Part shown: one piece after another, positions 8,349 through 34,045 of the stretch | Numbering within the stretch: position 1 is the first letter of the stretch | Layout of the letters: each line of letters begins with the position of its first letter | Assembly (NCBI GenBank): GCA_014359355.1 | Contig: JACIZP010000257.1 | Location: 1-46,909 of the forward strand | Source: Calditrichota bacterium | GTDB taxonomy: Bacteria > Zhuqueibacterota > Zhuqueibacteria > JANLFK01 > Oleimicrobiaceae | Length of the DNA stretch: 46,909 bases | Direction of reading: 5' to 3' | Notes under the pieces: model-generated | Told to the model about the DNA's origin: nothing | The model's input: the letters and a program-made list of their open reading frames with translations, nothing else | Databases searched by the model: none | Program-made: the position numbers and the translations under genes

Positions 8349-11300
8349 CTACCGCGCCACCACGACCTTGCCTATTACCGCCACCTGTTTTCCCTCCTGG
8401 GTCGCGGTGATTTTATAGAGGTACACGCCGTTGGCCAGTTCGTCGCCGTCCTCGTCTCGACCGTCCCAATGCACGCGGTTGAACCCGGTTGCGCTTGGGG
8501 CGTCATGAACCGTTTTGATCAGCCTACCGGCAAGAGTGTAGATGCGAATGCTCACCTCGTCTGCGGGCGCGGTCAGTACATAGCAGAAATCCGTGCCCGT
8601 GCGGAACGGGTTCGGGAAGTTTACCACGTCGCGCAGTTCGAGGCGCTCGGCCACCTGAAAGTCGATCCGAAGGTGAGAGGTGTTGCCGTTCGGGTCAGTG
8701 AACAGGACCTCTATCTCGTGCCGACCATTGGCCAGGGTCGGCTGAAAAACTATGGAGCCTTTGAGGCGCTGGTCGGCAGCCGCGTCGGGCGGCAGGAGCT
8801 GTAGGCGCGGCTCGCCACCGGCGAACGACAGGCGCGTCCCATCCAGCAGCAGGTGCAGGCCGGCGGTGTCGGTGAGGGCCCCTCCGCTGTTGTCGTACAG
8901 GCGCACCACAATCTGCGGGCGACCACTGACGAACTCACCGGCCGCGACGGCGTGGCCGTCCGCAAGCAGCTCGAGGGCCGGCGCGAGCGAGTCCCGCTGG
9001 ACCTCCACGACGCAAGCCTGATCGTTGTTGAATTCCGCCGGCTCGCCGATCTGGTCGCCTGGATCGACCCTGGCGCGGAGCTCGTAACGGCCTGCCAACC
9101 GCGCAGTCGGCCATGCGCGCCGAACCACTGCGGCGCTATCCGGCGCAAGGGGACGGCGCAGGGTGTCGGTGCCGAACAGGTCCTCCTTGCTCTGGCTCAC
9201 CTGACTCCACCAGACCACCACCTTTTCGGCAGGGGCATAGCCGAGGTTGTGGACCTCCAACTCGAGCTGCACAGGGTCGCCAGCCACCACGTTGCCTGTG
9301 GGTGTGACCCGGAGGGGGAGCGCTGCCAGCTCCGGCGCAGGCGTAAAGGAGGTGGCCCACCACTGCAGCGTCGGCGACCAGCGGCCGTCGCTGGTGAGCA
9401 GCTCCGCACGCAGCCTCACCAGCCTGAAACGCTGCGCATCCAACCCGCTGAGGTCCAGTGTTCCCTGCGGGCCACTGCCTTCCTGCACCCTGAGCCAGGC
9501 ACCTGAGCTCCACTCGTAGCCCTCCACGGCTACTGCCACCCTCGTGCAGGGGGCGGGCTCCTCTGCCTGCCATTGCACTTTCTGCCAGCGCGTGGCCGGC
9601 CCGATCAGCGGCGACTGCAAGATGCCTTGGGCAATGTAGAAGAAGATGCTGTCCTGCAGCACCGCCACGCCCTGGCCACTCTTCACCAGCTTCTCGGGCA
9701 CGCTCCCGGGGGTTGCGCCCTTCCTGCCGATGATGGCCCAGGAGTCGCGGGCTCCCACCTGTCGACAGAGCGCACTCCCTATCGATTCCAGCGCTTGGTA
9801 GGCCGCCTCGGTCATGCTGTGGCTGCCCTCGTCGGCAATAGCCGCCAGGACAAGCATGCCTTCAGGTATCTGCGCCACAAAATCAGCCAGCCGTTGCGCC
9901 TCGGCAGTCGACTCGTAGGTGTCGAAGGCCATGGCCTGGACCACCTGTCCGTTGCCTGGGTGCACGACGGCCAAGTTGTGGCCGCGCCCTTGTGCCAGGG
10001 CCGGGCTGCCGGCCACCAGAAGCCTGGCGTACTGCCCGTCGTTGTACCCTGCCGACTCGGCGCGCAGAACCACTTTTTCCCGCGCCAGCTGCACCCCTGT
10101 GGCTGTTTGTTCTGTGCCCGCGAAGAGACCCGCATCTGTCTCCGCGGGGAAAAGCTGCTGCCAGCGCGTCTCTTCGGCCCCTTCAGCAAGAGTGAAGGAT
10201 GCTGCGCGCCACGGCCCAGGCCCGTTTGCATAGACCGCTCTTGCCCGCCAAAAGTAGCGCCGTCCCGCAGAAAGCGGCGCAGGAGTCCATCGCGTGGAGA
10301 GCAAGCCAGGCAAGATCTCCGGGGAGCGCTGCAAGGCTCCTGACGAGAAATCCGCAGTCGTATCCACCTCGAATTGCACGTATTGAGGCGAGCCTGAGGC
10401 GGACACCGGGGTGAGTACCTCCAGCGTCGGGGTGACGTCCAGCAGCGCATGGGGGAAAGGCTTGAGCAGCACCACCTCCACGGCGCCCACCGGCACGCGG
10501 ATGGTGGCGCGGTTGTTCGTCTCCACCGCCTCGCGGATGCTGTCGTCAGGATCGACCACCGCTTCCAGATCAAAGCTGCCGCTGCGCCCTCCCAGGCGCC
10601 AGGCAAACGCGGCAGTGTCCTGCCACCCCAAGGCAGACAAAAGCTTGGGCGTGTCAATGGGAAACGCGCCAGTTCCTGGCGACCGTCCCCAGAGCCCCAC
10701 CTGTACTGGGCCGGGCGTAGCCAGCCCAAAATTGTGCACGCGGACGACCACCTGGACCAAGGAGTCCTCTTCACTGGGCGTGGCAGGAGTCAGGGAGAGG
10801 TCAGCGGGCTGAACCACCAGGTCCGGCAACGAGGGCAAGGCCAAATCCGTAGCCGGGTCACCAAGCAGCGAGTACTGCAGAATCACATTCCTGGTGAACT
10901 GACTGTTCCCGAGGCTCTCCCACAGGCGCAGCTTTGCCAGGGTCGTGGCGGCGCCCAAGAGGTGTACAGTGTCGACGAGCGCAGCGCGAAACAGATTGGT
11001 AATCAGCACCTGGTCGTGGAAGAGGTAGCCCCATCCGGTGGTACCCCAGAAGCCGACCGCGCCGCTCTGGGGCAGTGTCAGGAACTCTTCCCCAAAGCAA
11101 TTGGTGTAGGGATTGGCAAAGCGGGCCGTGTGGCAGGTCATGCTGGTCACAAACGGATAGCGCCCCTGGTTACGCAGCTCCCGCAGGTCAGTGGAGTTGA
11201 ACATCAGGTCCCAGGTGCCGGTGCCCGCGTGCCCTACAAAGTTCGTCCACAGCACCCCCGCATTGAGAGCCGCCAGAATGTCATCGCGATGCTCCCCTTG

Positions 11301-14174
11301 GAAATACCCTTGCGAGGTCTTGCTTATCACCACGGGTTGGCAGGAGGCCGGCGGCTTGGCGATGATCGAATCCACGAGCAGCCGCGACTGTTGGGCGAAT
11401 TGCTGCTGCTCCCAGGTGTCGAATCCACCGTTGATGAGCAGCACCTGCTTCTTCCATGCCGCGGGGGTGCTGTCCGACTCGTAGGCGATGATTTTGCGCA
11501 CCATGCGCTCGGCCTGCTCCCCGTTCTCCGCAGGAATCCGTCCCACAAGAAGGTCCGGTAGAAGATCGTCAGGGCCGTCCGTGCAGGCGAACCAGGCATC
11601 GCTCACCGGATTGCCAAAAGTGGGCACATAGTCCTTTTTCACCGTTTGCGCAAGCAAACCCTTCGGGTCCCAGCACGCATCGCCGAGCAAAAGCAGGAAA
11701 CGTGGGCTCCGCTGCCAGTGGGCAGTTGCGTGCTCCATAAGCAGCCGGATAGCGGCGGGGTCGGCCAGGCCATAGGTGAATTCGTCGTACACATCTTCAA
11801 TGAACGCAGAGGTGACGGCGAAGCCATTGTGAACTCGGCGGAACGCGGCCAGCTCCTCTGCGGCAGCCGCAAAGCGCGGGTGGGTGATGAGCAGATAGTC
11901 CGCAGCATTCTGCGCCGAGCGCAAGTGCGAGGGCTGGTCCAGCACCATGCGAGCTGGGCTCCTCAACGTGCCCAGCTCGGCTGCCATGAGGTGCAGGGCA
12001 ACACCCGACGAGTCTCGGAATGCCGCAGTCACTCCTCTGCCACCTGAGGAAAAGGAGATTACCTCGGCCAGGCGTGCTGGCCCCGTGCGTGCAGGTGCCA
12101 AGACCTCGGGCACAGACCCTGGGGTTGCCCCTTTGCGTCCGATCAGGGCCCAAGAGTCCCGCACGCCTACCTGCCGCGTGAGGGCGCTGCCCAAGCTCTC
12201 CAAGGCACTGTGCGCCCGCGGCGTCATGCCCACGCTCCCCTCATCGCGGATGGCGACCAGCACGACGGTGCCTGCCGGCAGACGCTCCACGTAGGCCGCC
12301 ATGCTGTCGGCATTGGCCTGCGAAGCGTAGGTGTCGAAATTCCTCTTGTCCAGCACTTGCCCGCTCTGGCCGTCCAAGACCAGCAGGTTGTGACCCCGGC
12401 CACCACTCCACAGAAGCTGGTCGTCCTGCCAAAACTCGGCGCGGTTGCCATCGTGGTAGCCGGCAGAGAGCAGAACAAAACGTGCCCACCAGCTCGTTGA
12501 ACAGCGGACCTCGGTGACCAGGCGCCCCTTGTCCACGTCGACAACGAGGATGCTGTCGGAAGAAAAGCCCTGAATTGCAATGTCTCGTGCCCCTCCACTG
12601 GCTGGCAGGAGGCCAGCGAAGCGGCCTGCTATGGCCTTGGGGCGACGCGGGTATACGAGTTCGATCCAGTCAAGATAGAATTGGTCGATGCCGGCACCCG
12701 TATTGCCGACTGAGGCAATGGCGAGATCGTTCAGGGCGCGCGCCGCATCGGCGGGGAACGTTGCGTCGACAAAGATGAGCTGCCGATTGTCAAACCAGAC
12801 GTCGGCGGCCAGGCGGCCATTGAACCAGAGGCGCGCATGGTGGTCCGGGTTCGCCTGGTCCAGCGTGGTACCGCGCAGAAGCACCCTCAGCCGCAGGCTA
12901 TCCCCTTCGAAAGCCAAATCGGGCAGTGGCACCGGCACGCTCAGGGAATCCCCGGGGTTGAAAAAGTGCCAAACCCACCCTTCGCCAGGTGTGGCGAAGG
13001 TGTTATGCACCTCGGCGTCGCTGTCGCCGTGATAGTAGTGCCTCTCTTCTTCAAGGTGCAGGGTATCGGCGAACCAATGGAGGAATTCCTGCCCGGCAGG
13101 CGCTGCTGCAGTTGCGACCAGGCGCTTTCCTTCCGACCCTCCCCAGGTCAGCCAGTAGACGTTCGTGTCCGACTGGGCCGCATAGTAGGTGGTGTCGCCC
13201 CGTCGGCGCTCAGCAGAAAAGACCAGCCAGTCGTCTGCATCGAACACGCCATCGCCGCCTTCGGCCACGTGCAGAGCTACCTCCTCGCCCCTGTAGTACA
13301 GGCGCAGCGTACTGCTAGGAACCACGCTGGAAATGCCCAACGACTGCAGCTCGCGGCCGCGGACCGCGTAGAGGCCTTGTTCCAGCAGCAACAACTTGCA
13401 GTAGGGCCGCGCCGGGTCGTACCAGCCATACTCGTCCTGAGGAGTGCTACGCCCCAGCGGCATTGGGGCCTTGCTACCCCGCAGGAGGTCGCCCGCCACG
13501 CGTTTGAGCTCGTCCCCCACAGGCGGCAGTTGAAGGGGGGTCTGCGCCGTACCCTGCCATTGCACGCGGAGGCGCGCCCGCTCGACAAGCCGTATGCTCC
13601 CCGTGGTCGCAGCATAGCGGAGCGGATGGACTGCCACCCGGACGAGCCGGTGACCAGCCACTACGGCCGCACCGTCAAGCATTGCGATTGGCCTTGCGGC
13701 GACCGGGTCGCCTGGCCCGTGTTGTGCAGGGGCAGCAAACCGATAGCTCACTCGGCTCATACCCTCAGGGCCCTGCTCCTGGGCAAGCAGGACACGCGGC
13801 AGGCGATAGGTCCCGGCAACTGGTGTGCAGATGCTGTCCTCTACAAGCACCGTGACCCTGGCCCCGGGCGGCACCTCAATGGCCAGGCCTGCGACTGGCA
13901 AGGCCAAAGCCCCATCGACAAGGTCTATGGGCAGGTCGCCGAGCAGAGGGAGGTGAACTTCCTCTCCCCCATCCACCAAGCGCTCAAAACGCAGGGCAGG
14001 GGCAGCCCACTCCAGCACACAGTAGTTCGCTCCCCGCTCGACCATGTGCAGGGCAGGCTGCCCGGCAAAGGCCAAGGCGGCTACCGAGCAGAGGAGGCTC
14101 ACTACCGTTGCTCTATGTGCTCGCAGGACAGTCACGTTCTCCGGCCAGAAGGTCATCGCCTGCCTGAGGTCCAC
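8349..14174 (-). CDS. giant secreted C25 (gingipain-like) cysteine peptidase-family protein with two ILEI/FAM3-like modules, CARDB-like modules and a T9SS C-terminal sorting domain
   Basis: 1941 aa with a signal-like N-terminus. His/Cys contexts NFVGHAGTG and FVTSMTCHTARF. Two paralogous modules end in RDSWA(L/I)IGRKGATPGSVPE. CARDB-like segments VRVHNFGLA...ETNNRA and EVHNLGYA...EFNNDQ. The C-terminus NFPNPF...GVYLYKITA...VVVAR is T9SS type-A-like. Confidence 0.85.
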   Translation of the reverse strand: MDLRQAMTFWPENVTVLRAHRATVVSLLCSVAALAFAGQPALHMVERGANYCVLEWAAPALRFERLVDGGEEVHLPLLGDLPIDLVDGALALPVAGLAIEVPPGARVTVLVEDSICTPVAGTYRLPRVLLAQEQGPEGMSRVSYRFAAPAQHGPGDPVAARPIAMLDGAAVVAGHRLVRVAVHPLRYAATTGSIRLVERARLRVQWQGTAQTPLQLPPVGDELKRVAGDLLRGSKAPMPLGRSTPQDEYGWYDPARPYCKLLLLEQGLYAVRGRELQSLGISSVVPSSTLRLYYRGEEVALHVAEGGDGVFDADDWLVFSAERRRGDTTYYAAQSDTNVYWLTWGGSEGKRLVATAAAPAGQEFLHWFADTLHLEEERHYYHGDSDAEVHNTFATPGEGWVWHFFNPGDSLSVPVPLPDLAFEGDSLRLRVLLRGTTLDQANPDHHARLWFNGRLAADVWFDNRQLIFVDATFPADAARALNDLAIASVGNTGAGIDQFYLDWIELVYPRRPKAIAGRFAGLLPASGGARDIAIQGFSSDSILVVDVDKGRLVTEVRCSTSWWARFVLLSAGYHDGNRAEFWQDDQLLWSGGRGHNLLVLDGQSGQVLDKRNFDTYASQANADSMAAYVERLPAGTVVLVAIRDEGSVGMTPRAHSALESLGSALTRQVGVRDSWALIGRKGATPGSVPEVLAPARTGPARLAEVISFSSGGRGVTAAFRDSSGVALHLMAAELGTLRSPARMVLDQPSHLRSAQNAADYLLITHPRFAAAAEELAAFRRVHNGFAVTSAFIEDVYDEFTYGLADPAAIRLLMEHATAHWQRSPRFLLLLGDACWDPKGLLAQTVKKDYVPTFGNPVSDAWFACTDGPDDLLPDLLVGRIPAENGEQAERMVRKIIAYESDSTPAAWKKQVLLINGGFDTWEQQQFAQQSRLLVDSIIAKPPASCQPVVISKTSQGYFQGEHRDDILAALNAGVLWTNFVGHAGTGTWDLMFNSTDLRELRNQGRYPFVTSMTCHTARFANPYTNCFGEEFLTLPQSGAVGFWGTTGWGYLFHDQVLITNLFRAALVDTVHLLGAATTLAKLRLWESLGNSQFTRNVILQYSLLGDPATDLALPSLPDLVVQPADLSLTPATPSEEDSLVQVVVRVHNFGLATPGPVQVGLWGRSPGTGAFPIDTPKLLSALGWQDTAAFAWRLGGRSGSFDLEAVVDPDDSIREAVETNNRATIRVPVGAVEVVLLKPFPHALLDVTPTLEVLTPVSASGSPQYVQFEVDTTADFSSGALQRSPEILPGLLSTRWTPAPLSAGRRYFWRARAVYANGPGPWRAASFTLAEGAEETRWQQLFPAETDAGLFAGTEQTATGVQLAREKVVLRAESAGYNDGQYARLLVAGSPALAQGRGHNLAVVHPGNGQVVQAMAFDTYESTAEAQRLADFVAQIPEGMLVLAAIADEGSHSMTEAAYQALESIGSALCRQVGARDSWAIIGRKGATPGSVPEKLVKSGQGVAVLQDSIFFYIAQGILQSPLIGPATRWQKVQWQAEEPAPCTRVAVAVEGYEWSSGAWLRVQEGSGPQGTLDLSGLDAQRFRLVRLRAELLTSDGRWSPTLQWWATSFTPAPELAALPLRVTPTGNVVAGDPVQLELEVHNLGYAPAEKVVVWWSQVSQSKEDLFGTDTLRRPLAPDSAAVVRRAWPTARLAGRYELRARVDPGDQIGEPAEFNNDQACVVEVQRDSLAPALELLADGHAVAAGEFVSGRPQIVVRLYDNSGGALTDTAGLHLLLDGTRLSFAGGEPRLQLLPPDAAADQRLKGSIVFQPTLANGRHEIEVLFTDPNGNTSHLRIDFQVAERLELRDVVNFPNPFRTGTDFCYVLTAPADEVSIRIYTLAGRLIKTVHDAPSATGFNRVHWDGRDEDGDELANGVYLYKITATQEGKQVAVIGKVVVAR

Positions 14175-14581: not shown

Positions 14582-15739
14582 CTACTTAAGCAGCACCATG
14601 CGCCGCGTCGCCGTAAACTCCCCGGCCTGCAGCCTGTACAGATACACGCCAGAGGGCAGATCACTCCCGTCCACGACTATGCGGTGGCTGCCGGCGGCCA
14701 GGGGTGCGTTGACCACCTCTTTGACCTTCTGCCCGAGAGCGTTGAAGATGACCATGCTGACGTGCGTGTTGCTGGGCAGATACACGTCCACATACGTGGT
14801 CGGGTTGAAGGGGTTGGGGTAGTTCTGGCTCAAATGATAGGTGCCCAGGACCGCCGGCTGTTCTGCGACGCGCACCGGCGAGCCGTTGCTACCGCCCCGC
14901 GTGATGACCGACACGAGCTCCCAGGGCCCGCCATCTGGGACGCGACTGTAGGACTGGGTGACGTCCATCGCCGGAAAGGCGACCGAGTCTATCACCACAC
15001 CGTCAGCGTCCTCAAGCCATGCCCACTCACCGCTGCTTGACAGGCCAAAGTCGGCCGGGTCACCGGTGTTATCGGTGACAATGACGAAGAAGCCATGCGG
15101 CGGAAGCACTGTCCCCGCCGGAAGGAGTTTCTTCGGCTTGGTGCCCGCCTTGCCGCCGTTGTCGTAAATCTTGTAGCCGGAAATGTCCACGGTGTCGAGG
15201 GTGGCGTTGTAGACCTCGATCCAGTCTGGATCAGAGGTCGTTCCGCGGGAGTAGATCTCGTTCATCCGGAGGACACCGTTGAGCGAGCCGCGCGTGACGC
15301 GCTTCAGTATCTGCCACGGACCGCCGTCCGGGTACCGGCCGTACGATTCGGTGGTAGCCAGCGCGGGAAACGCCACCGTGTCGATCACCGCACCGGTGGC
15401 ATCCTCCAACCATACGGTCTCGCCACTGCTGGAAAGGCCAAAGGCGCTGGCCGTGCCGTCCTCGGTAACCACCACGTAGACCCCCAGGGGCGGGATCACG
15501 GTCCCGGCGGGAAACTCCTTCTTCGGCTTGGTGCCCGCCTTACCGCCGCTGTCGTAGATCTTGAAGCCGGTGATGTCCACCGTCTGTGAGCTGGCATTGT
15601 AGAGCTCAATCCAATCGGGATTCTCGTTGGTGCCACGGGAGTAGACCTCGTTGAGGAGAATCGCCGACTGCGCGTAGAGAGCTCCTGCCAACAGCCATGC
15701 GGCAACCATGAATGCCGCACCGTAACTAAGCTTCTTCAT
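14582..15739 (-). CDS. secreted protein with two lamin-tail domains (LTD) and a T9SS C-terminal sorting domain
   Basis: Start MKKLSYGAAFMVAAWLLAGALYAQS follows AAGGAGG. Two repeats of NE(V/I)YSRGT..DPDWIE.YN...DI(T/S)G(F/Y)KIYD.GGKAGTKPKK...FGLSSSGE..WLED. The C-terminus NYPNPFNP...GVYLYRLQAGEF...VLLK. Confidence 0.8.
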   Translation of the reverse strand: MKKLSYGAAFMVAAWLLAGALYAQSAILLNEVYSRGTNENPDWIELYNASSQTVDITGFKIYDSGGKAGTKPKKEFPAGTVIPPLGVYVVVTEDGTASAFGLSSSGETVWLEDATGAVIDTVAFPALATTESYGRYPDGGPWQILKRVTRGSLNGVLRMNEIYSRGTTSDPDWIEVYNATLDTVDISGYKIYDNGGKAGTKPKKLLPAGTVLPPHGFFVIVTDNTGDPADFGLSSSGEWAWLEDADGVVIDSVAFPAMDVTQSYSRVPDGGPWELVSVITRGGSNGSPVRVAEQPAVLGTYHLSQNYPNPFNPTTYVDVYLPSNTHVSMVIFNALGQKVKEVVNAPLAAGSHRIVVDGSDLPSGVYLYRLQAGEFTATRRMVLLK

Positions 15740-15810
15740 GTCCACCTCCTTTGCAATGCACTCCTTCCGTGCGCCAGCTCGGCGATGCACCGCACGCGGA
15801 GCCGGCCATC

Positions 15811-27472: not shown

Positions 27473-27978
27473 TGCGCGCGCAGCCAAAGCGAGTGCCGCC
27501 AGACCTTAGGACGACGCTGCAAGACGGTTTTGCAGCAGCAGGTAAGAGTCAGCCGAAGTAAATCCGCCGCGCGAGCCGTTCGCTGCGAACGCGCGGCTCG
27601 AGGACCAGCCGCACTTGCCACATCCTGCAACTCGTGGACGTAGATGGCCGGCAGCTCCTCCCGTCCGGCGACGGACTCGTCCACCGTGACCTGGTAGTCC
27701 AACCACTTGCCTTCCACCTTCTCAGACCAGCATCCAGCCGTTCGGTGACCCCACAAGGGGAAAGGAACGAGGAACCGGCGCTCTCTCATGCCAGGGCCAT
27801 CCAGAGTCTTGAGCACCCTCCAGCATGATCCGTGCTGAACGATTTGCAAGACGATTGACAGGGCATGGCCCCTGAACTTGCACACTCTCGTTCGCCCACC
27901 AGGTGCACTCATGTGGAATGAGGGCATCGGGCACCGGAGAGGACTTTCACGCCAGGCTGGCGTTGTTCTTGGCGCTTC

Positions 27979-29070
27979 CTAAGGCAGGTGGACGCGCTCG
28001 TCGAGCAGACGGGCGAGGCCGGCGCTGTCCCCCGGCGACCATCCAAAAGATCGGCGCCAGACCTCGTCGCTTTCCATGCACAGGTAGACCAGAACGTGCG
28101 GCGCATGCAGGCGAATGCGCTGGTACAGCCACTGGAACATCTCCTCCCGAATCGCGCGAAAATAGCGCAACTTGCCATCCTTGCCGGGTACCAACTCCCC
28201 CAGCGGCAAATCGCTTTGCCTGTGGCGCTCGCGGATCAGCTCATCCAGGTGAGCGGGGTAGCGCAAGGCACCCAGGCTTATCCAGGCGATGTTCTCGGGC
28301 CGAGCGAAGGAAAAGAGGCGATCGACCACGCCCGCATACTCCTCCTTCCACCCCTCGTACCAGATGAGCGGGTCGAAGTGGAAGCCCAGCCGGTATCCGG
28401 CATCCTGCGCTTTCTGTGCCGCCTCCAGCCGCCGCGTTAATGGGGCACTGTTCGGCTCATGGGCCGCAACCATGCGCGCGGTGTTCAAGGACCAGGAGAG
28501 CACCGTGCGCCTGCCATGCTCGAGGCCCAATAGCGGCGCAATGGTGTCAGTCTTCGTCTTCAACTCGAGGAGGGCGTGCCTCTTGTCGGCAAAGTAACGC
28601 ACCAGCTCCCGGTTCAAGTCGATGAGGTGGTCAAAGGCAAGGCTGTCGGCCAACTCGCCTGTGCCGATGCGCACTGCCGCCGGCCATCGTCGCGCCAAGA
28701 GCTCGTCCAGTTCCTGCCACAGGTCGGCACTGTTGGTGTAGATCGTCGCCACCGGGCAATTCAGATATCCTTGGAGAATACAGTAGCGGCAGCCGATGGT
28801 GCACCCCATGGCAACATTGAGGTTCCAATAACCGCAGCAGATGTAGCCCTTGGTGCCGGGGCACGGCTTGGCGAAATGCCCTCGCTGTCGCGCAAGGAGA
28901 AGGCTGTGCGCGGCCTCCTCCTCGGTCACCTGGGGAAACAGGCCGCCCTCCTCCGGCAGAAGGATGTGCTGCGCCCCGGGCAGCCTGTCGAGCACACGCT
29001 TGGTCAGCGGCTCCTCGGCTACCGAGGAGGCGATGAACACCTTCTCAGGAGCGAAGGCGCGGTAGGTCAC
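27979..29070 (-). CDS. spore-photoproduct-lyase-family (SPL-type) radical SAM protein
   Basis: CTIGCRYCILQ (CX3CX2C followed by LQ, as in SplB) and overall collinearity with SplB as I recall it. GTG at 29070 follows GGAGAA. Alternative TTG start at 29097 overlaps the ParB-like stop (TTGA). Confidence 0.75.
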   Translation of the reverse strand: MTYRAFAPEKVFIASSVAEEPLTKRVLDRLPGAQHILLPEEGGLFPQVTEEEAAHSLLLARQRGHFAKPCPGTKGYICCGYWNLNVAMGCTIGCRYCILQGYLNCPVATIYTNSADLWQELDELLARRWPAAVRIGTGELADSLAFDHLIDLNRELVRYFADKRHALLELKTKTDTIAPLLGLEHGRRTVLSWSLNTARMVAAHEPNSAPLTRRLEAAQKAQDAGYRLGFHFDPLIWYEGWKEEYAGVVDRLFSFARPENIAWISLGALRYPAHLDELIRERHRQSDLPLGELVPGKDGKLRYFRAIREEMFQWLYQRIRLHAPHVLVYLCMESDEVWRRSFGWSPGDSAGLARLLDERVHLP

Positions 29071-29093
29071 TCTTCGTTCTCCGCGGACCTTTG

Positions 29094-30080
29094 TCAAGGC
29101 AGAAGCAGCAATTCTCGCAACGTCGAGCTTTCGGCGATTTGCTGAAGTCGTTGCGCCGCTGCCCGCAACTCCTCACCGCTCCCGAATTGTACGTGACACT
29201 GCCATTCGCCACCCTCAAAATTGGCTGGAGGAGAAAGACGCACATTGGCCGGGAGATCAAGACTGCGGATCAGCTCATGGGAGCGGCGTTCCGCTTCGGC
29301 TAAACGGGGGAACCGCCGCTGGCGCAGCCAGGTCAGCACCTTCTCCGTTTTCTGGCCTGGGCTCCAGTCGGTCTTTCGCAAGACCTCTTGCAACTCCGGC
29401 GCAGAAAGCACCTGCTGAATGGACATCGACTCCCTGCGCGCCACATCCTCTGCGAGTCGGACAAGGTCGCGTTGGTGGTTCTTCCCCAGGCGCAGCTGCG
29501 AGATCACGGCAAACAGGGCCGAGGCGTCGCCGTCGCTCATTTCGACGAGGCGGAGGGCCACCTCCTGGGAGAGACGGTCCTCGGCCAACCATTGCCGCAT
29601 TGGCTCGGGCAGCCCGGCCAACGAGAGGTAACGCTGCAAGAGCGTACGGCTCCCCTGCAGGTTGAGGAGCGGCATGTACCGGCTTACAACCTCTGTTTCA
29701 GGCACATGGAATTGCCTGACCAGTTTGTGGAGGGCAACGGCGCACTCGACGACATTCAGGGCGCGGATGCCAAGATTGTCGCCCAAGGACCACACGAAGA
29801 GGGCAAGTTCAGGGACGGCTTCTTCCACACACCAAGCGGAGATGGTTGTTGCCCCCTGCTCCCTCAGGAGGGCGCACCGCCGGAACCCTGCGACCACTCG
29901 CCAACGGCCGTCCTGCCGCCTCTGCACAGTCGGCGGATTGATCAACCCCACCGTGTGCAGGGATGCCGCCAAAGCCGGGGGCGGCGGCCCATAGCTAACC
30001 TGATACCACCGATCCTCAAGGTCGATCTCCGTGAGGGCAACGCTTGCCAATTGCCGGGGAATGTCCTCTTCGATGCCCAT
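29094..30080 (-). CDS. ParB/Srx N-terminal-domain protein with a long helical C-terminal region
   Basis: LINPPTVQRRQDGRWRVVAGFRRCALL matches the ParB GxxRxxA arginine-patch region. ATG at 30080 follows GGGAG (the ORF itself extends to a TTG at 30101). Confidence 0.7.
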   Translation of the reverse strand: MGIEEDIPRQLASVALTEIDLEDRWYQVSYGPPPPALAASLHTVGLINPPTVQRRQDGRWRVVAGFRRCALLREQGATTISAWCVEEAVPELALFVWSLGDNLGIRALNVVECAVALHKLVRQFHVPETEVVSRYMPLLNLQGSRTLLQRYLSLAGLPEPMRQWLAEDRLSQEVALRLVEMSDGDASALFAVISQLRLGKNHQRDLVRLAEDVARRESMSIQQVLSAPELQEVLRKTDWSPGQKTEKVLTWLRQRRFPRLAEAERRSHELIRSLDLPANVRLSPPANFEGGEWQCHVQFGSGEELRAAAQRLQQIAESSTLRELLLLP

Positions 30081-30189
30081 GATCTGTCTCCCTTCGGGCA
30101 AGGAACGGCTGCACAGACGCGGACATATGCAAGTCTACAACAAGCTCTGCACAAAGTCAAGAGCAAAACCTAACCCGCACAAATAGATG

Positions 30190-30218
30190 TTGACATTGCC
30201 GCGATTTTTTGTTATCAT
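30190..30218 (+). promoter_or_regulatory. sigma-70-type promoter (TTGACA-17-TATCAT)
   Basis: TTGACA at 30190..30195, a 17-nt spacer, then TATCAT at 30213..30218, about 45 nt upstream of the AGCS start codon. Confidence 0.5.
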
Positions 30219-30262: not shown

Positions 30263-31768
30263 ATGACCGCCTTTCTCGAGGAACTCTTGCGCATCTCGCA
30301 AATGCTGGCGGACTTTATGTGGGGCAACTGGATGATCCTGCTCTTGGTGGGCACCGGCGTGGTGCTCACCGTGGTGACGCGCGGCATTCAGGTGCGCAAG
30401 TTCTTTCTGTCCCTGAAATTCGCCTTCAGCGGCGCCTCCAAGAAGAGCGCCGTCCACTCCAAGCAGGGTGACATCTCGCCGTTTGCGGCGCTGATGACCG
30501 CGCTTGCTGCCACCGTGGGGAACGGCAACATTGCCGGCGTGGCTACGGCCATCGCCACCGGCGGACCAGGCGCGCCGTTCTGGATGTGGGTGTCCGCCCT
30601 CTTCGGCATGGCCACCAAGTATGCGGAAGGGTTCTTAGGGGTGAAATATCGCAAGGTCGCCGAGGACGGCTCCATGGCGGGCGGTCCCATGTACTACTGC
30701 CGCTACGGCATCAAGTGGAAGCCTCTGGCGCGCGTGTTGGGGATGGTATTTGCCGTCTGCGGTGCGTTCACCGCCCTGTTCGGCACCGGCAACATGATGC
30801 AGTCCAACTCCATGGCGCTGGCCTTCAAGACGCAGTTCCACGTGCCGACCATCGTGAGCGCCGTGGTCATCACCGTCCTGGTCGGCTTGGTCATCATTGG
30901 CGGCATCAAGCGCATTGGTGCGGTTGCCGAGCGCCTGGTGCCCACCATGATTCTCTTTTACCTGGCGGGGGCGGCTGTCATTCTCATCAGTAGGGCAACA
31001 GCCCTCGATGATGCCTTTATGCTCATCTTCCGCTCGGCATTCTCACTGCAGGCAGCAGGTGGCGCGTTGGTCGGCACGACCGTGCAGAAAGCCATCAGCC
31101 TCGGCGTGCGCCGCGGGGTGTTGTCCAACGAGGCGGGATTAGGCTCGGCAGCCATAGCCCAGGCGGCAGCCAAGTCGCCGGACCCCACGTACAACGGACT
31201 GGTGGCGATGACTGGCGTGTTCATCGACACCTTGCTCGTGAACACCATCACCACGCTCACGATCGTGGTCACCGGCCTGTGGATGCTCACCCCTGCGGCC
31301 GGAGTGGAGTTGTTGCGGGAAGGCACCCGCCTGGCCCCGGAGGCTGTCGCCACGCTTCCGCCCGCCGCCCAGCAACTTGCCGCACGCATAGGCTATGACC
31401 TGGCCAACGGCGGGCTGTCGAGCACGGCACTCACTACCATGGCCTTCAATTCGGTTATCCCCTTCGGCGGCTGGATTGTGGCCATTGGCTCTTTTCTCTT
31501 CGGCTATACCACGCTCATCGGCTGGGCCTACTACGGTGAGCAGTGCATCGAGTACATTTGGGGCGTCAAGTCGAAGATGCCCTACCGCCTGGTCTACATC
31601 ACTCTGCTCTTCTTCGGCGCCTTGATGACTGGGAAGTACTTGAACATTGTCTGGTACGTGGGCGACACCGCCAATGCCATCATGGCCTTCCCCAATCTGA
31701 TCGGGCTCTTATTGCTCTCGGGCGTGGTGGCACGTGTGACACGGCACCATTTCTTGGAGCAGATGTAG
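30263..31768 (+). CDS. alanine/glycine:cation symporter (AGCS family)
   Basis: Start MTAFLEELLRISQMLADFMWGNWMILLLVGTG. GNGNIAGVATAIATGGPGAPFWMW and LSNEAGLGSAAIAQAAA motifs are typical of AGCS transporters. Confidence 0.85.
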   Translation: MTAFLEELLRISQMLADFMWGNWMILLLVGTGVVLTVVTRGIQVRKFFLSLKFAFSGASKKSAVHSKQGDISPFAALMTALAATVGNGNIAGVATAIATGGPGAPFWMWVSALFGMATKYAEGFLGVKYRKVAEDGSMAGGPMYYCRYGIKWKPLARVLGMVFAVCGAFTALFGTGNMMQSNSMALAFKTQFHVPTIVSAVVITVLVGLVIIGGIKRIGAVAERLVPTMILFYLAGAAVILISRATALDDAFMLIFRSAFSLQAAGGALVGTTVQKAISLGVRRGVLSNEAGLGSAAIAQAAAKSPDPTYNGLVAMTGVFIDTLLVNTITTLTIVVTGLWMLTPAAGVELLREGTRLAPEAVATLPPAAQQLAARIGYDLANGGLSSTALTTMAFNSVIPFGGWIVAIGSFLFGYTTLIGWAYYGEQCIEYIWGVKSKMPYRLVYITLLFFGALMTGKYLNIVWYVGDTANAIMAFPNLIGLLLLSGVVARVTRHHFLEQM

Positions 31769-31770
31769 CT

Positions 31771-32265
31771 TTGCCTCAAAACGTAGAAAGTAAGGCGCAG
31801 AACGAGCCGACTCGCCACTACGTCTACATTGTCCGCTGCGGCGATGGTTCGTTCTACACGGGCTGCACCAAGAACGTCGAGGAGCGCGTCCGGCGCCACA
31901 ACGGCGAACTGCACGGAGGGGCGCGCTACACACGCACGCGGCGACCCGTGGTGCTGGTACACTGCGAGGAGTTCACCTCCTTGCGAGAGGCGCGGCGCCG
32001 GGAGAGGGCACTCAAGCGCCTCTCGCGGACGGCCAAGGAACTGCTCATCGCCGGCAGCTCTGCAGGTGGGGCAGCGGATACGTTGGCCCAGGCAGGAGGC
32101 AGCAGGATTTCGGCCGCACGCAAGAAGGCCACCACGCGTATTGACGTGGATGAGCTGTATAAGAAGCTCCGCAAGCCCATGCCCAAACCGACGGTGGTGC
32201 ACAAGGACCGCAAGCGCTATTCGCGGAAGCAGAAGCACCCGCGCATTCCTGAAGAGGAGGAGTGA
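31771..32265 (+). CDS. GIY-YIG nuclease-domain protein with a basic C-terminal extension
   Basis: HYVYIVRCGDGSFYTGCTKNVEERVRRHN...RRRERALK is a GIY-YIG (UPF0213-like) core. The only in-frame start after the upstream stop is TTG at 31771. A lysine/arginine-rich tail of about 70 aa follows. Confidence 0.65.
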   Translation: MPQNVESKAQNEPTRHYVYIVRCGDGSFYTGCTKNVEERVRRHNGELHGGARYTRTRRPVVLVHCEEFTSLREARRRERALKRLSRTAKELLIAGSSAGGAADTLAQAGGSRISAARKKATTRIDVDELYKKLRKPMPKPTVVHKDRKRYSRKQKHPRIPEEEE

Positions 32266-32292
32266 GCGGTCGAGGCTCAATGCAACAGAACC

Positions 32293-33033
32293 ATGTCGTC
32301 GCCCCTCCTCGTCAGGGAGATTCGCTGCAGGGCGGCGCTCACGCGCTCGCGCATTCCGGGAATTGACTATGCCCTGAATCCCTACGTGGGCTGCGCCCAT
32401 GGCTGCCGGTATTGCTACGCGGAGTTCATGCGCGGCTATACCGGCCATGCCGAACCGTGGGGCAGTTTTGTGGATGTGCGCATCAATGCGGCCAGGCAGC
32501 TGGCAAACGATGTGGCGCGGCTGCGGCCAGGGGTAATCGGCCTGAGCACCGTCACCGATCCTTACCAGCCGCTGGAACGGAGGTACCAACTGACGCGTTC
32601 CTGCCTTACGGTCCTCCAGGCCGGCCTCTTCCCGGTGTCGATCCTGACCAAGTCGCCGCTGGTCACGCGGGACATCGACGTGCTCCGCTCTTTGGCAGAA
32701 TGCGAGGTGGGACTGACCATCACCACAGATGACGAGCGCATGCGCCGACTGTTCGAGCCCTGTGCACCACCGGTTGTGCGGCGGCTGGAGGCGCTGGCGG
32801 CGCTCAAAGCGGCAGGGCTGCGCACCTATGCCTTCGTCGGGCCGGCGCTGCCAATGGATCCGCAACATCTGGCGAGGTTGCTCGATGGCCTTGTGGACGA
32901 GGTCCTGGTAGACCGCATGAACTATGCGCACAAGGTCGTCTCTCTGTATCGCGCCCACGGCCTGACAAAGTACCTGTCCAATGCGTACTTTGAGGAAGTT
33001 GAGGCGGCGATGTCATCTGTGGCGCGACGCTAA
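32293..33033 (+). CDS. radical SAM protein, COG1533 / DNA-photolyase-like (SPL-related)
   Basis: YVGCAHGCRYCYA (CX3CX2C), then ...LSTVTDPYQP...ILTKSPLVTRD, typical of the COG1533 family. Confidence 0.8.
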   Translation: MSSPLLVREIRCRAALTRSRIPGIDYALNPYVGCAHGCRYCYAEFMRGYTGHAEPWGSFVDVRINAARQLANDVARLRPGVIGLSTVTDPYQPLERRYQLTRSCLTVLQAGLFPVSILTKSPLVTRDIDVLRSLAECEVGLTITTDDERMRRLFEPCAPPVVRRLEALAALKAAGLRTYAFVGPALPMDPQHLARLLDGLVDEVLVDRMNYAHKVVSLYRAHGLTKYLSNAYFEEVEAAMSSVARR

Positions 33034-33196
33034 GCTCCGGATGCCCTCTGCATCTGGCTGTTGCATTTGTGCGGCGTTTCTGCTAAATTGCAGGGCCAAT
33101 GAGAGCCGTCGAGCAGACATTTCCGCTGCGAAGCAACGATGCGCCGCGGCGCTACCACCGCATGGGCCATTCGTTAGCCAGCTCGCAGGAGCGCTG

Positions 33197-34045
33197 ATGA
33201 GCAGTTTGCGTCCGCCTATGCGACGCACGCGCAGCGCGGCCGAAGTCGCCATTTTGGCAAACCAGTTGCGCGCGCATGCGCTGGGCAAAAAGGTGGTCCA
33301 GGCCTGGTTCCCCCAAGGTTGGGCAGGCGAGTTGCCGCCACGACCCGAAGCGCTTGTCCGGCACTCACGGGTCGCAGGCGTCGACCACTGTGCCACCTGC
33401 CTGACCATCGACTTTGACACAGGCCTGTCCATGGTGGTGCAGCTTGCCAAAGGAGGCTCGGCGCGCTGGGTGGCTGGCCCAGAGCCAACGCGCGAGGACG
33501 AGCAGATGGTCGTGCGCTTCGAGCGCGACACCTGGCTTCTGGTGAAAGTGGAAGGCCCTCGGGCAACAAAGTTGCTGCCCAGTGCGAACCTCCGGCGCCT
33601 GCCTCCGCTCAAGGGCCTCGGGCCGGACGTCCTGTCCGCGGAGTTTACTCTGGAGGTGCTGCGCGCCGCACTTGGCAAAGCGGGTGCGCGCATGGTGCGT
33701 CCCCTGCTCCTTGACCAGCGGCGCATCGCCGGGCTTGACGAGCCGCTTGTGGACGAGATCCTGCTCCGCGCACGCATTCACCCCCGCACCGAGGCGCGCC
33801 GCCTCTCTGCGGAACAGCAGCGAGGCCTGTTCGAAGCCATCCGGGAGGTGTTGCGGCAGGCAATGGAACAAGGAGGCTCAGCAACCACGGGCTTTGTGGA
33901 CCTGCATGGCAAGCGCGGCAGATTTCGCTCCGCCGGCTGGGATGCGCGCATACGCACATGCTGGCGTTGCGGCACTCCCCTCGCCCGCCAGCTCTGCGCG
34001 CGCCGCCCCTGTTTCCTGTGTCCCCTGTGCCAGGAGCTCTCGTGA
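33197..34045 (+). CDS. Fpg/Nei-family-like protein (H2TH plus zinc finger) lacking the N-terminal PELPEVE catalytic motif
   Basis: LLLDQRRIAGL..LVDEILLRARIHP (H2TH-like) and CWRCG...CPLCQ (CX2C-16-CX2C). The N-terminus is MSSLRPPMRRTRSAAEVAIL instead of MPELPEVE. ATG at 33197 follows AGGAG. Confidence 0.7.
   Translation: MSSLRPPMRRTRSAAEVAILANQLRAHALGKKVVQAWFPQGWAGELPPRPEALVRHSRVAGVDHCATCLTIDFDTGLSMVVQLAKGGSARWVAGPEPTREDEQMVVRFERDTWLLVKVEGPRATKLLPSANLRRLPPLKGLGPDVLSAEFTLEVLRAALGKAGARMVRPLLLDQRRIAGLDEPLVDEILLRARIHPRTEARRLSAEQQRGLFEAIREVLRQAMEQGGSATTGFVDLHGKRGRFRSAGWDARIRTCWRCGTPLARQLCARRPCFLCPLCQELS

Follow-up and report, generated by a model that had tools for sequence, protein, structure and literature searches.

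A conserved gene pair, in which a gene for a ParB-like protein directly precedes a gene for a radical S-adenosylmethionine (SAM) enzyme of the spore photoproduct lyase (SPL) family, was characterised in a Calditrichota bacterium contig (JACIZP010000257.1, assembly GCA_014359355.1). The whole stretch analysed, positions 1 to 46,909 of the forward strand, is henceforth referred to as the window, and the pair lies on its minus strand between positions 27979 and 30080. As judged from the alignments described below, the enzyme is an SPL-family member with a new signature and the ParB-type protein is a new conserved partner. The reading we favour is that one operon encodes a two-component DNA-directed radical SAM system, composed of an SPL-fold lyase and a dedicated ParB-type targeting or regulatory partner. 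This assignment is tentative, with a probability of roughly 0.45.

Conservation of the pair was assessed from both members. A scan with the enzyme alignment, using one genome per species for 185,579 species, returned relatives in 410 genomes; 80 loci were fetched, 71 of them with sufficient upstream DNA to be informative, and the ParB-like gene was detected with the family profile. It stands directly upstream of the enzyme gene, on the same strand, in 64 of these 71 species-representative loci, and in the remaining seven no ParB-like gene lies within 6 kb of the enzyme. A metagenome scan with the ParB-like alignment yielded 26 loci, 19 of which included downstream DNA; an enzyme gene follows in 18 of the 19 (the exception is L093), in a sample that is biased to the LGKNRQ[RK]E sub-clade by the narrowness of the alignment. 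The record names of the carriers include KSB1, Calditrichota, Zixibacteria, Gemmatimonadota, Sumerlaeota and Desulfobacterota/‘delta proteobacteria’. The earlier reading of this DNA, made from the letters alone and hereafter called the sequence-only reading, had proposed that adjacency be scored across phyla, and the linkage extends well beyond close relatives. The pairing is far beyond chance. At 23 loci the genes overlap by the 4 nt ATGA, the most frequent junction.

Pairwise identities of the two proteins co-vary (r = 0.82, a value reached in 0 of 999 permutations), with a median identity of 29% for the ParB-like protein versus 48% for the enzyme, so that the former evolves much faster. Because the linkage has been retained despite this divergence, the comparisons provide strong evidence that the two genes form a functional unit. 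A narrow-clade distribution of the ParB-like family, indicated by a word-indexed search that gave only 15–19 proteins, was rejected as an artefact of the word filter; an exhaustive hidden Markov model (HMM) search matched, over the full length and at E ≤ 1e-30, approximately 2,078 ParB-like clusters formed at 50% identity. Relatives of the enzyme number in the thousands. Three of them, at 50–56% identity and in unrelated contexts, are each accompanied by a gene of ~320 aa that overlaps their start by 4 nt. Unpaired genes were also recorded. On two Desulfobacterales-type contigs (L004:1258-3106 and L005:314-2174), ParB-like genes with 27–31% identity lie directly after purC (SAICAR synthase) and the SPL gene is absent downstream. 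At three ‘delta proteobacterium’ loci (L076, L081 and L088), the enzyme is present and the adjacent ParB-like gene is absent.

In the window, the open reading frame (ORF) list places the two genes exactly at these coordinates, co-oriented on the minus strand. The ParB-like gene (29094–30080; ORF, ribosome-binding site (RBS), Pfam and NCBIfam evidence) encodes 328 aa from the ATG at 30080 and ends with the TGA at 29096–29094. Its longest form, 29094–30101, begins at a TTG, and the ATG at 30080 is the most likely start because a GGGAGA RBS lies 6 nt upstream and because gene callers give 328 aa for the protein and its homologues. The SPL-family gene (27979–29070) encodes 363 aa from the GTG at 29070 or 372 aa from an alternative TTG at 29097, which overlaps the ParB-like stop codon as TTGA. 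The GTG has a GGAGA 7 nt before it and is separated from the ParB-like gene by 23 nt; it is the more likely start because of this RBS and because 363 aa matches the called length of the closest homologues, P0016 and P0017 (87–92% identical). Both start options of the sequence-only reading, a gap of at most 23 nt or a TTGA overlap, were thereby verified. Both proteins are small and soluble-looking, and the closest homologues of both are recorded as candidate division KSB1. A protein with a T9SS tail, also encoded in the window, is consistent with an organism of the FCB group. The pair is flanked by a divergent Na/alanine symporter gene and a convergent sigma54 two-component system.

The enzyme matches the Pfam SPL family PF20903 (E = 1.4e-32), and its AlphaFold2 (AF2) model has a predicted local distance difference test (pLDDT) value of 86. 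Its best Foldseek hits are SPL structures, matched over the full length (~346 columns, E = 5e-25, TM 0.75/0.82), and the next radical SAM fold follows at 3e-5. Scores of 114.6 bits against TIGR04070, the SplB equivalog (cut-off 400), and of 49.9 bits against TIGR03886 (cut-off 437) fall below the thresholds of both families, and identity to SplB (TIGR04070; PDB 4FHC-4FHG, 4K9R, 4RH0) is only 21–25%. By these profile and model data, the enzyme has the full SPL fold but is not a SplB orthologue.

Residues were mapped by HMMER alignments to the SPL chains of G. thermodenitrificans (offset 27) and by a multiple alignment that included SplB of Bacillus and Clostridium together with an SPL-family protein of Deinococcus, with counts made in 192 sequences. 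The C-terminal third was mapped by the multiple alignment only, with an uncertain register near Tyr339 and Glu268. Structural roles of SPL residues were taken from PMC3467042, and enzyme residues are numbered in the 372-aa form. The radical SAM motif C99-x3-C103-x2-C106 (28780–28803, minus strand) is invariant and aligned to C90/C94/C97 of the G. thermodenitrificans protein. The SAM ligands Lys174 and Ser195 are kept as K182 and S203, invariant or nearly so, the phosphate-binding Arg273 is kept and invariant, and Tyr96 is represented by Y105 in 191 of the 192 sequences. A segment predicted to form a flexible beta-hairpin, K309-L-R311-Y312 (28162–28173, minus strand), would be the counterpart of the SPL base-flipping hairpin Arg304/Tyr305; it is invariant, with Y312 aligned to the hairpin Tyr305 and an invariant Arg preceding that Tyr, and the AF2 model shows low-pLDDT strands at residues 303–311.

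Other positions differ from SplB. An invariant Glu occupies the Cys140 position, the equivalent of Tyr98 in the radical-relay pair Tyr96/Tyr98 is Ile (170), Val (20) or Phe (2), and the equivalent of Arg193 is Ser (153), Ala (37) or Gly (2). Glu268 has no acidic counterpart in an alignment that is ambiguous there, and Tyr339 may correspond, within a register uncertainty of one residue, to the invariant Y338. The segment C79-PGT...I-C87-C88 (28834–28863, minus strand) contributes three cysteines, each present in 192/192. Of these, C79 aligns with the Clostridium-type catalytic cysteine position (Clostridium Cys77 is the equivalent of Geobacillus Ser76; PMC3467042), and the C87-C88 pair falls within a 6-residue insertion absent from SplB. 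A fourth extra invariant cysteine, C340 (28078–28080, minus strand), stands beside Y338 and near the SPL Tyr339 position, and the enzyme ends in a C-terminal extension of ~32 aa. The four extra invariant cysteines (C79, C87, C88 and C340) point to a thiol relay or to a second metal or Fe-S site.

Taken together, the DNA-handling and SAM-handling parts of the enzyme look conserved and the lesion pocket looks remodelled. The label ‘spore-photoproduct-lyase-type’, given in the sequence-only reading, was upheld for the fold and the SAM site; it did not extend to the Bacillus-type catalytic cysteine or to two of the three lesion-reading side chains, which are not conserved. Among the SplB catalytic residues beyond the Fe-S cysteines that it had put forward for checking, Tyr96, Lys174, Ser195, Arg273 and Tyr305 are retained and Cys140, Tyr98, Arg193 and Glu268 are not. 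A conserved fourth cysteine as hydrogen-atom donor is found only in the Clostridium form (C79) and not as Bacillus Cys140/141. The TIGR03886 ‘Spore photoproduct lyase family protein’ of Deinococcus and others is likewise an SPL-family radical SAM protein of non-sporulating bacteria, but it keeps Arg193 and is without the CPGT, CC and C340 cysteines and the C-terminal extension; the D. deserti locus of this type has no ParB-like gene.

The ParB-like protein matches the Pfam helix-turn-helix (HTH) family HTH_ParB above its gathering score (4.1e-5, 24.1 versus 22.6) and ParB_N below it (0.0092, 16.4 versus 26.3); of seven further family members scanned, four passed the ParB_N threshold (P0137, P0140, P0148 and P0150). 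In its AF2 model (pLDDT 93), the first ~200 residues match cytidine triphosphate (CTP)-bound ParB, Noc and KorB clamp structures in Foldseek with probability 1.0 at 18–22% identity, and sulfiredoxin and SbnI are weak fold matches. The protein thus shares with ParB/Spo0J, Noc and KorB an N-terminal ParB-CTPase fold followed by a ParB-type HTH, together with both the (E/D)N..R motif and the two basic residues of GERR. The counterpart of the GERR nucleotide-binding motif is G65-F66-R67-R68 (29877–29888, minus strand), within the arginine-patch sequence VVAGFRRCALL whose retention had already been noted from the letters. Column counts over 69 members gave G65 in 69/69, R68 in 68/69 and K or R at position 67 in 60/69, and the motif (D/E)101-N102...R106...N109...E112 is largely conserved. 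Unlike the established clamps, the family has Phe, Tyr or Leu at position 66, that of the catalytic Glu of GERR (65/69: F39, Y14, L12; no Glu), and I-D-x-x-D-x-x-[YF] in place of the N-terminal QPR-type motif. The peptide that precedes the first strand, and activates ParA in partition ParB proteins, is also absent, with beta-strand 1 of the model beginning at residue 10. By comparison with established ParB CTPases, this motif pattern predicts that the protein probably binds nucleotide with weak or no hydrolysis.

The remainder of the ParB-like protein, residues ~200–328 (29097–29483, minus strand), is a family-specific C-terminal domain of ~130 aa with LRLGKNxQ, RYP and FEG motifs. It is not covered by the ~200 columns that align with ParB structures, is helical with a small beta part in the model, and contains invariant Q203, R256, P258 and F288. 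No Pfam hit was obtained for the domain and a sequence-profile search of the PDB gave no relative better than E = 0.018; it appears unrelated to any ParB dimerisation domain. The long unrelated C-terminus described in the sequence-only reading was thus borne out, as was its observation that parA and parS partners are lacking nearby: no ParA-type protein was detected with Pfam among the scanned window ORFs, and no canonical parS was matched in the window at ≤3 mismatches. The protein scored 30 bits against TIGR00180 (cut-off 58.45) and 36.2 bits against the Noc model TIGR04285 (cut-off 315), and it had no match in 72,556 plasmids. Because these two cut-offs were missed, no parA or parS was found nearby, no plasmid matched and the C-terminal domain is specific to the family, the protein is, on the available comparisons, not an ordinary partition ParB, in support of the sequence-only reading.

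Both genes are predicted to lie behind one conserved sigma70-like promoter, TTGACT-17 nt-TAGACT (30132–30160, minus strand), which was identified by consensus scan upstream of the ParB-like gene and whose two hexamers are both conserved upstream in two homologous loci (ParB-like proteins 55–60% identical to that of the window). A second, strong sigma70-like match at 30190–30218 on the plus strand (TTGACA-17-TATCAT with TG, 11/12) faces the Na/alanine symporter gene. It stands back to back with the ParB-like promoter in a divergent control region of ~130 nt that is partly conserved in L002. No enriched 8-mer was found in 63 upstream regions. Palindromes common to L006 and L031 were considered as operators and rejected; they correspond to a coding-region repeat and to the intrinsic terminator of an upstream KH-domain gene. 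At the other end of the operon, the palindrome ACGCCAGCCTGGCGT (27949–27963) lies 16 nt past the stop codon of the SPL-like gene, between the convergent genes. It is a possible terminator hairpin, followed by a T-run on the plus strand only.

In the favoured two-component reading, the pair would be of ancient origin and passed on vertically in several phyla whose members are uncultured, do not sporulate and are mostly anaerobic, and translational coupling would ensure that the ParB-like protein is made in step with the enzyme. The enzyme is expected to bind SAM at its CX3CX2C [4Fe-4S] cluster, and the conserved Arg-Tyr hairpin would flip a damaged or target dinucleotide out of duplex DNA for 5'-deoxyadenosyl-radical chemistry, with hydrogen returned from the Clostridium-type C79. 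Because the pocket differs (Glu for Cys140, Ser for Arg193, the CC insertion, C340 and the 32-aa tail), the substrate is probably a lesion or base other than the classical spore photoproduct, or one that is bound differently; the four additional invariant cysteines could be ligands of a second metal or Fe-S site. The ParB-like protein, with its ParB-CTPase fold and HTH, would probably bind nucleotide and hydrolyse it poorly, and through its family-specific C-terminal domain it might serve as a DNA-targeting or licensing partner that acts as a clamp, scanner or sensor. We infer that DNA is the substrate, that the two proteins interact physically, and that the ParB-like protein has a loading role. 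In functional terms, the nearest precedent for such a ParB-type partner comes from DpdA, a base-flipping DNA enzyme whose action depends on the ParB-fold ATPase DpdB (PMC10164549).

Several observations weigh against the two-component reading. The seven enzyme loci that lack a ParB-like gene within 6 kb, together with several ParB-like genes that stand alone after purC or without an enzyme, indicate that the two genes are separable, at least in position. Because the catalytic Glu of GERR and the QPR-type motif are missing, nucleotide use is uncertain. No parS-like or operator palindrome was found upstream of the ParB-like gene in the window promoter. Many carriers appear to live in dark sediments, where ultraviolet photoproducts are unlikely. 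A bolder form of the proposal is speculative and, in our view, unlikely: a nucleotide-gated ParB-type clamp would patrol the chromosome and deliver or license an SPL-fold enzyme with a second Cys-ligated metal or Fe-S site, which would directly reverse a DNA lesion typical of an anoxic lifestyle, such as a methylene-bridged intrastrand cross-link that is not the spore photoproduct. If true, anaerobic phyla would possess a DNA repair pathway that has so far gone unrecognised, and a ParB clamp dedicated to repair would be known for the first time.

The main rival explanation is that the ParB-like protein is only a transcriptional regulator or autoregulator of the operon, like SplA, DndB or KorB, and that the enzyme finds DNA unaided. 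We consider this somewhat unlikely. The arrangement has a parallel in the Bacillus splB locus, where the small regulator gene splA lies directly upstream in the same orientation. The upstream partner is a 328-aa ParB-fold protein here and the 79-aa SplA there, and by record names the present carriers belong to phyla that are not known for spore formation. The ParB-type HTH, the KorB structures among the fold matches and the seven loci with an unaccompanied enzyme are compatible with a regulator; on the other hand, the promoter regions yielded neither a conserved palindrome nor an operator, and the frequent ATGA overlap implies coupled, near-stoichiometric synthesis. A private C-terminal domain of 130 aa and nucleotide-motif arginines that are kept at <30% identity also exceed the needs of a simple repressor. 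A targeting partner is favoured over a regulator on account of translational coupling and of the conservation of both the nucleotide motif and the private C-terminal domain; these points fall short of proof. Far less credible, and already contradicted, is the view that an ordinary SplB orthologue and an ordinary partition ParB are neighbours by chance. Names assigned automatically (‘DNA photolyase’, ‘spore photoproduct lyase’ and ‘ParB-like chromosome segregation protein’ among them) point that way, but the TIGR04070 and TIGR00180 scores (115 bits versus 400 and 30 versus 58), the cross-phylum linkage, the failure to find parA or parS and the replaced equivalents of Cys140, Tyr98 and Arg193 all speak against it.

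The pair might alternatively install a DNA modification, as an epigenetic mark or self-marking, with the ParB-like protein picking the sites and a radical SAM enzyme with an auxiliary cluster performing the chemistry. Radical SAM enzymes whose chemistry inserts or modifies groups typically carry auxiliary clusters, and both the four extra invariant cysteines and the loss of the SplB lesion-reading residues would suit such an activity. ParB-fold partners do occur in DNA-modification systems: DpdB-DpdA (7-deazaguanine DNA modification) and DndB (phosphorothioation) likewise place a ParB-fold NTPase with a helical C-terminal domain beside a DNA-acting enzyme (PMC10164549, PMC10853773). DndB and DpdB have DGQQR/DGQHR-type motifs, lack a ParB-type HTH and reside in restriction-modification or defence islands, whereas the ParB-like protein has a G[FYL][KR]R motif and the HTH, and its gene has no recurrent dnd, dpd, restriction, effector or defence neighbours. 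No PADLOC hits were obtained, and the pair was not found in 2.9 M viral contigs. Given also the missing plasmid match for the ParB-like protein, the varied housekeeping contexts, the co-variation of the two genes as if co-inherited, and a nearest fold that is by far a lyase, a modification role is improbable. On the same grounds (PADLOC, viral contigs and plasmids), a defence or mobile-element system was not supported. Slightly more improbable still is an enzyme acting on a non-DNA target (RNA, protein or a small molecule) with the ParB-fold partner as a nucleoside triphosphate-dependent enzyme, for example a kinase or a sulfiredoxin-like protein. ParB/Srx folds include non-DNA enzymes, sulfiredoxin and SbnI were weak fold matches, and the substrate pocket is unlike that of SplB; the retained ParB-type HTH, the invariant SPL hairpin Tyr and phosphate-binding Arg, and the recurrence of UvrD-like helicase and single-stranded DNA-binding protein (SSB) genes as neighbours in some lineages argue for DNA instead.

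The literature searched contained no description of a link between ParB and SPL or radical SAM enzymes, in agreement with the sequence-only reading, whose author knew of no described ParB-SPL module. A radical SAM partner is not mentioned in a large-scale survey of the ParB-CTPase fold from 2025. That survey applied Pfam gathering thresholds, and these are missed by the window protein and by two of the seven further members scanned. To our knowledge, no radical SAM enzyme other than SPL is known to repair DNA, and SPL is considered a specialised enzyme of endospore formers. The present enzymes make up a large SPL-fold subfamily of their own, encoded in at least 410 species-representative genomes from phyla that do not sporulate and are largely uncultured, with a constant signature (an invariant Glu at the Cys140 position and four extra invariant cysteines) and, in ~90% of cases, a dedicated adjoining ParB-fold gene. 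If the pair acts on DNA, radical-based direct damage reversal, or a new DNA modification, would extend to anaerobes, and the fast-growing list of ParB-CTPase-fold switches would gain a new job.

Apart from the ParB-like protein and the enzyme, no gene family recurs near the pair. All neighbour ORFs at 86 loci were clustered, no third conserved gene next to the pair was found across them, and the nearest flanking genes comprise 108 Pfam families among 114 neighbours. UvrD-like helicase, SSB and nucleoside-salvage genes recur in sub-lineages only. A UvrD-family helicase gene of ~1,060 aa, on the same strand, abuts or overlaps the ParB-like start at 8/57 loci (examples are L008:1707-5042, L023:1801-5007, L039:1810-5019, L041:1849-5010, L044:1086-4259 and L057:1685-4894) and may form a three-gene operon with the pair in one sub-lineage. 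In L008, the pair is closely followed by an AP_endonuc_2 TIM-barrel gene. At L007:2538-4888 and ~15–18 related loci, genes for SSB, thymidine kinase, uridine kinase and cytidine deaminase are placed divergently upstream of the pair, an arrangement that is probably lineage synteny.

Within the window, a plus-strand cluster at ~31800–34045 contains a GIY-YIG nuclease-domain gene (in ORF 31543–32265), a radical SAM gene (32293–33033) and an Fpg/H2TH (Fpg/Nei-like) glycosylase-like gene (in ORF 32981–34045). The radical SAM gene is a second member of the SPL superfamily (‘DNA repair photolyase’, PA0069/COG1533-type), located 3–4 kb from the pair; it is unusually short at 246 aa and scores 147 bits versus a cut-off of 360. 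The same gene order is present in contig L002, whose ParB-like protein is 60% identical, and was not seen at the other loci. The UvrD-like helicase and SSB neighbours of some lineages and this cluster provide a hint of DNA repair. Elsewhere in the window, a very long minus-strand ORF (8349–14174) encodes 1,941 aa, and a 1,985-aa Peptidase_C25/CARDB/FlgD_ig protein is encoded near the ParB-SPL pair of contig L001. A Lamin-tail protein with a type IX secretion system (T9SS) sorting domain is encoded at 14582–15790.

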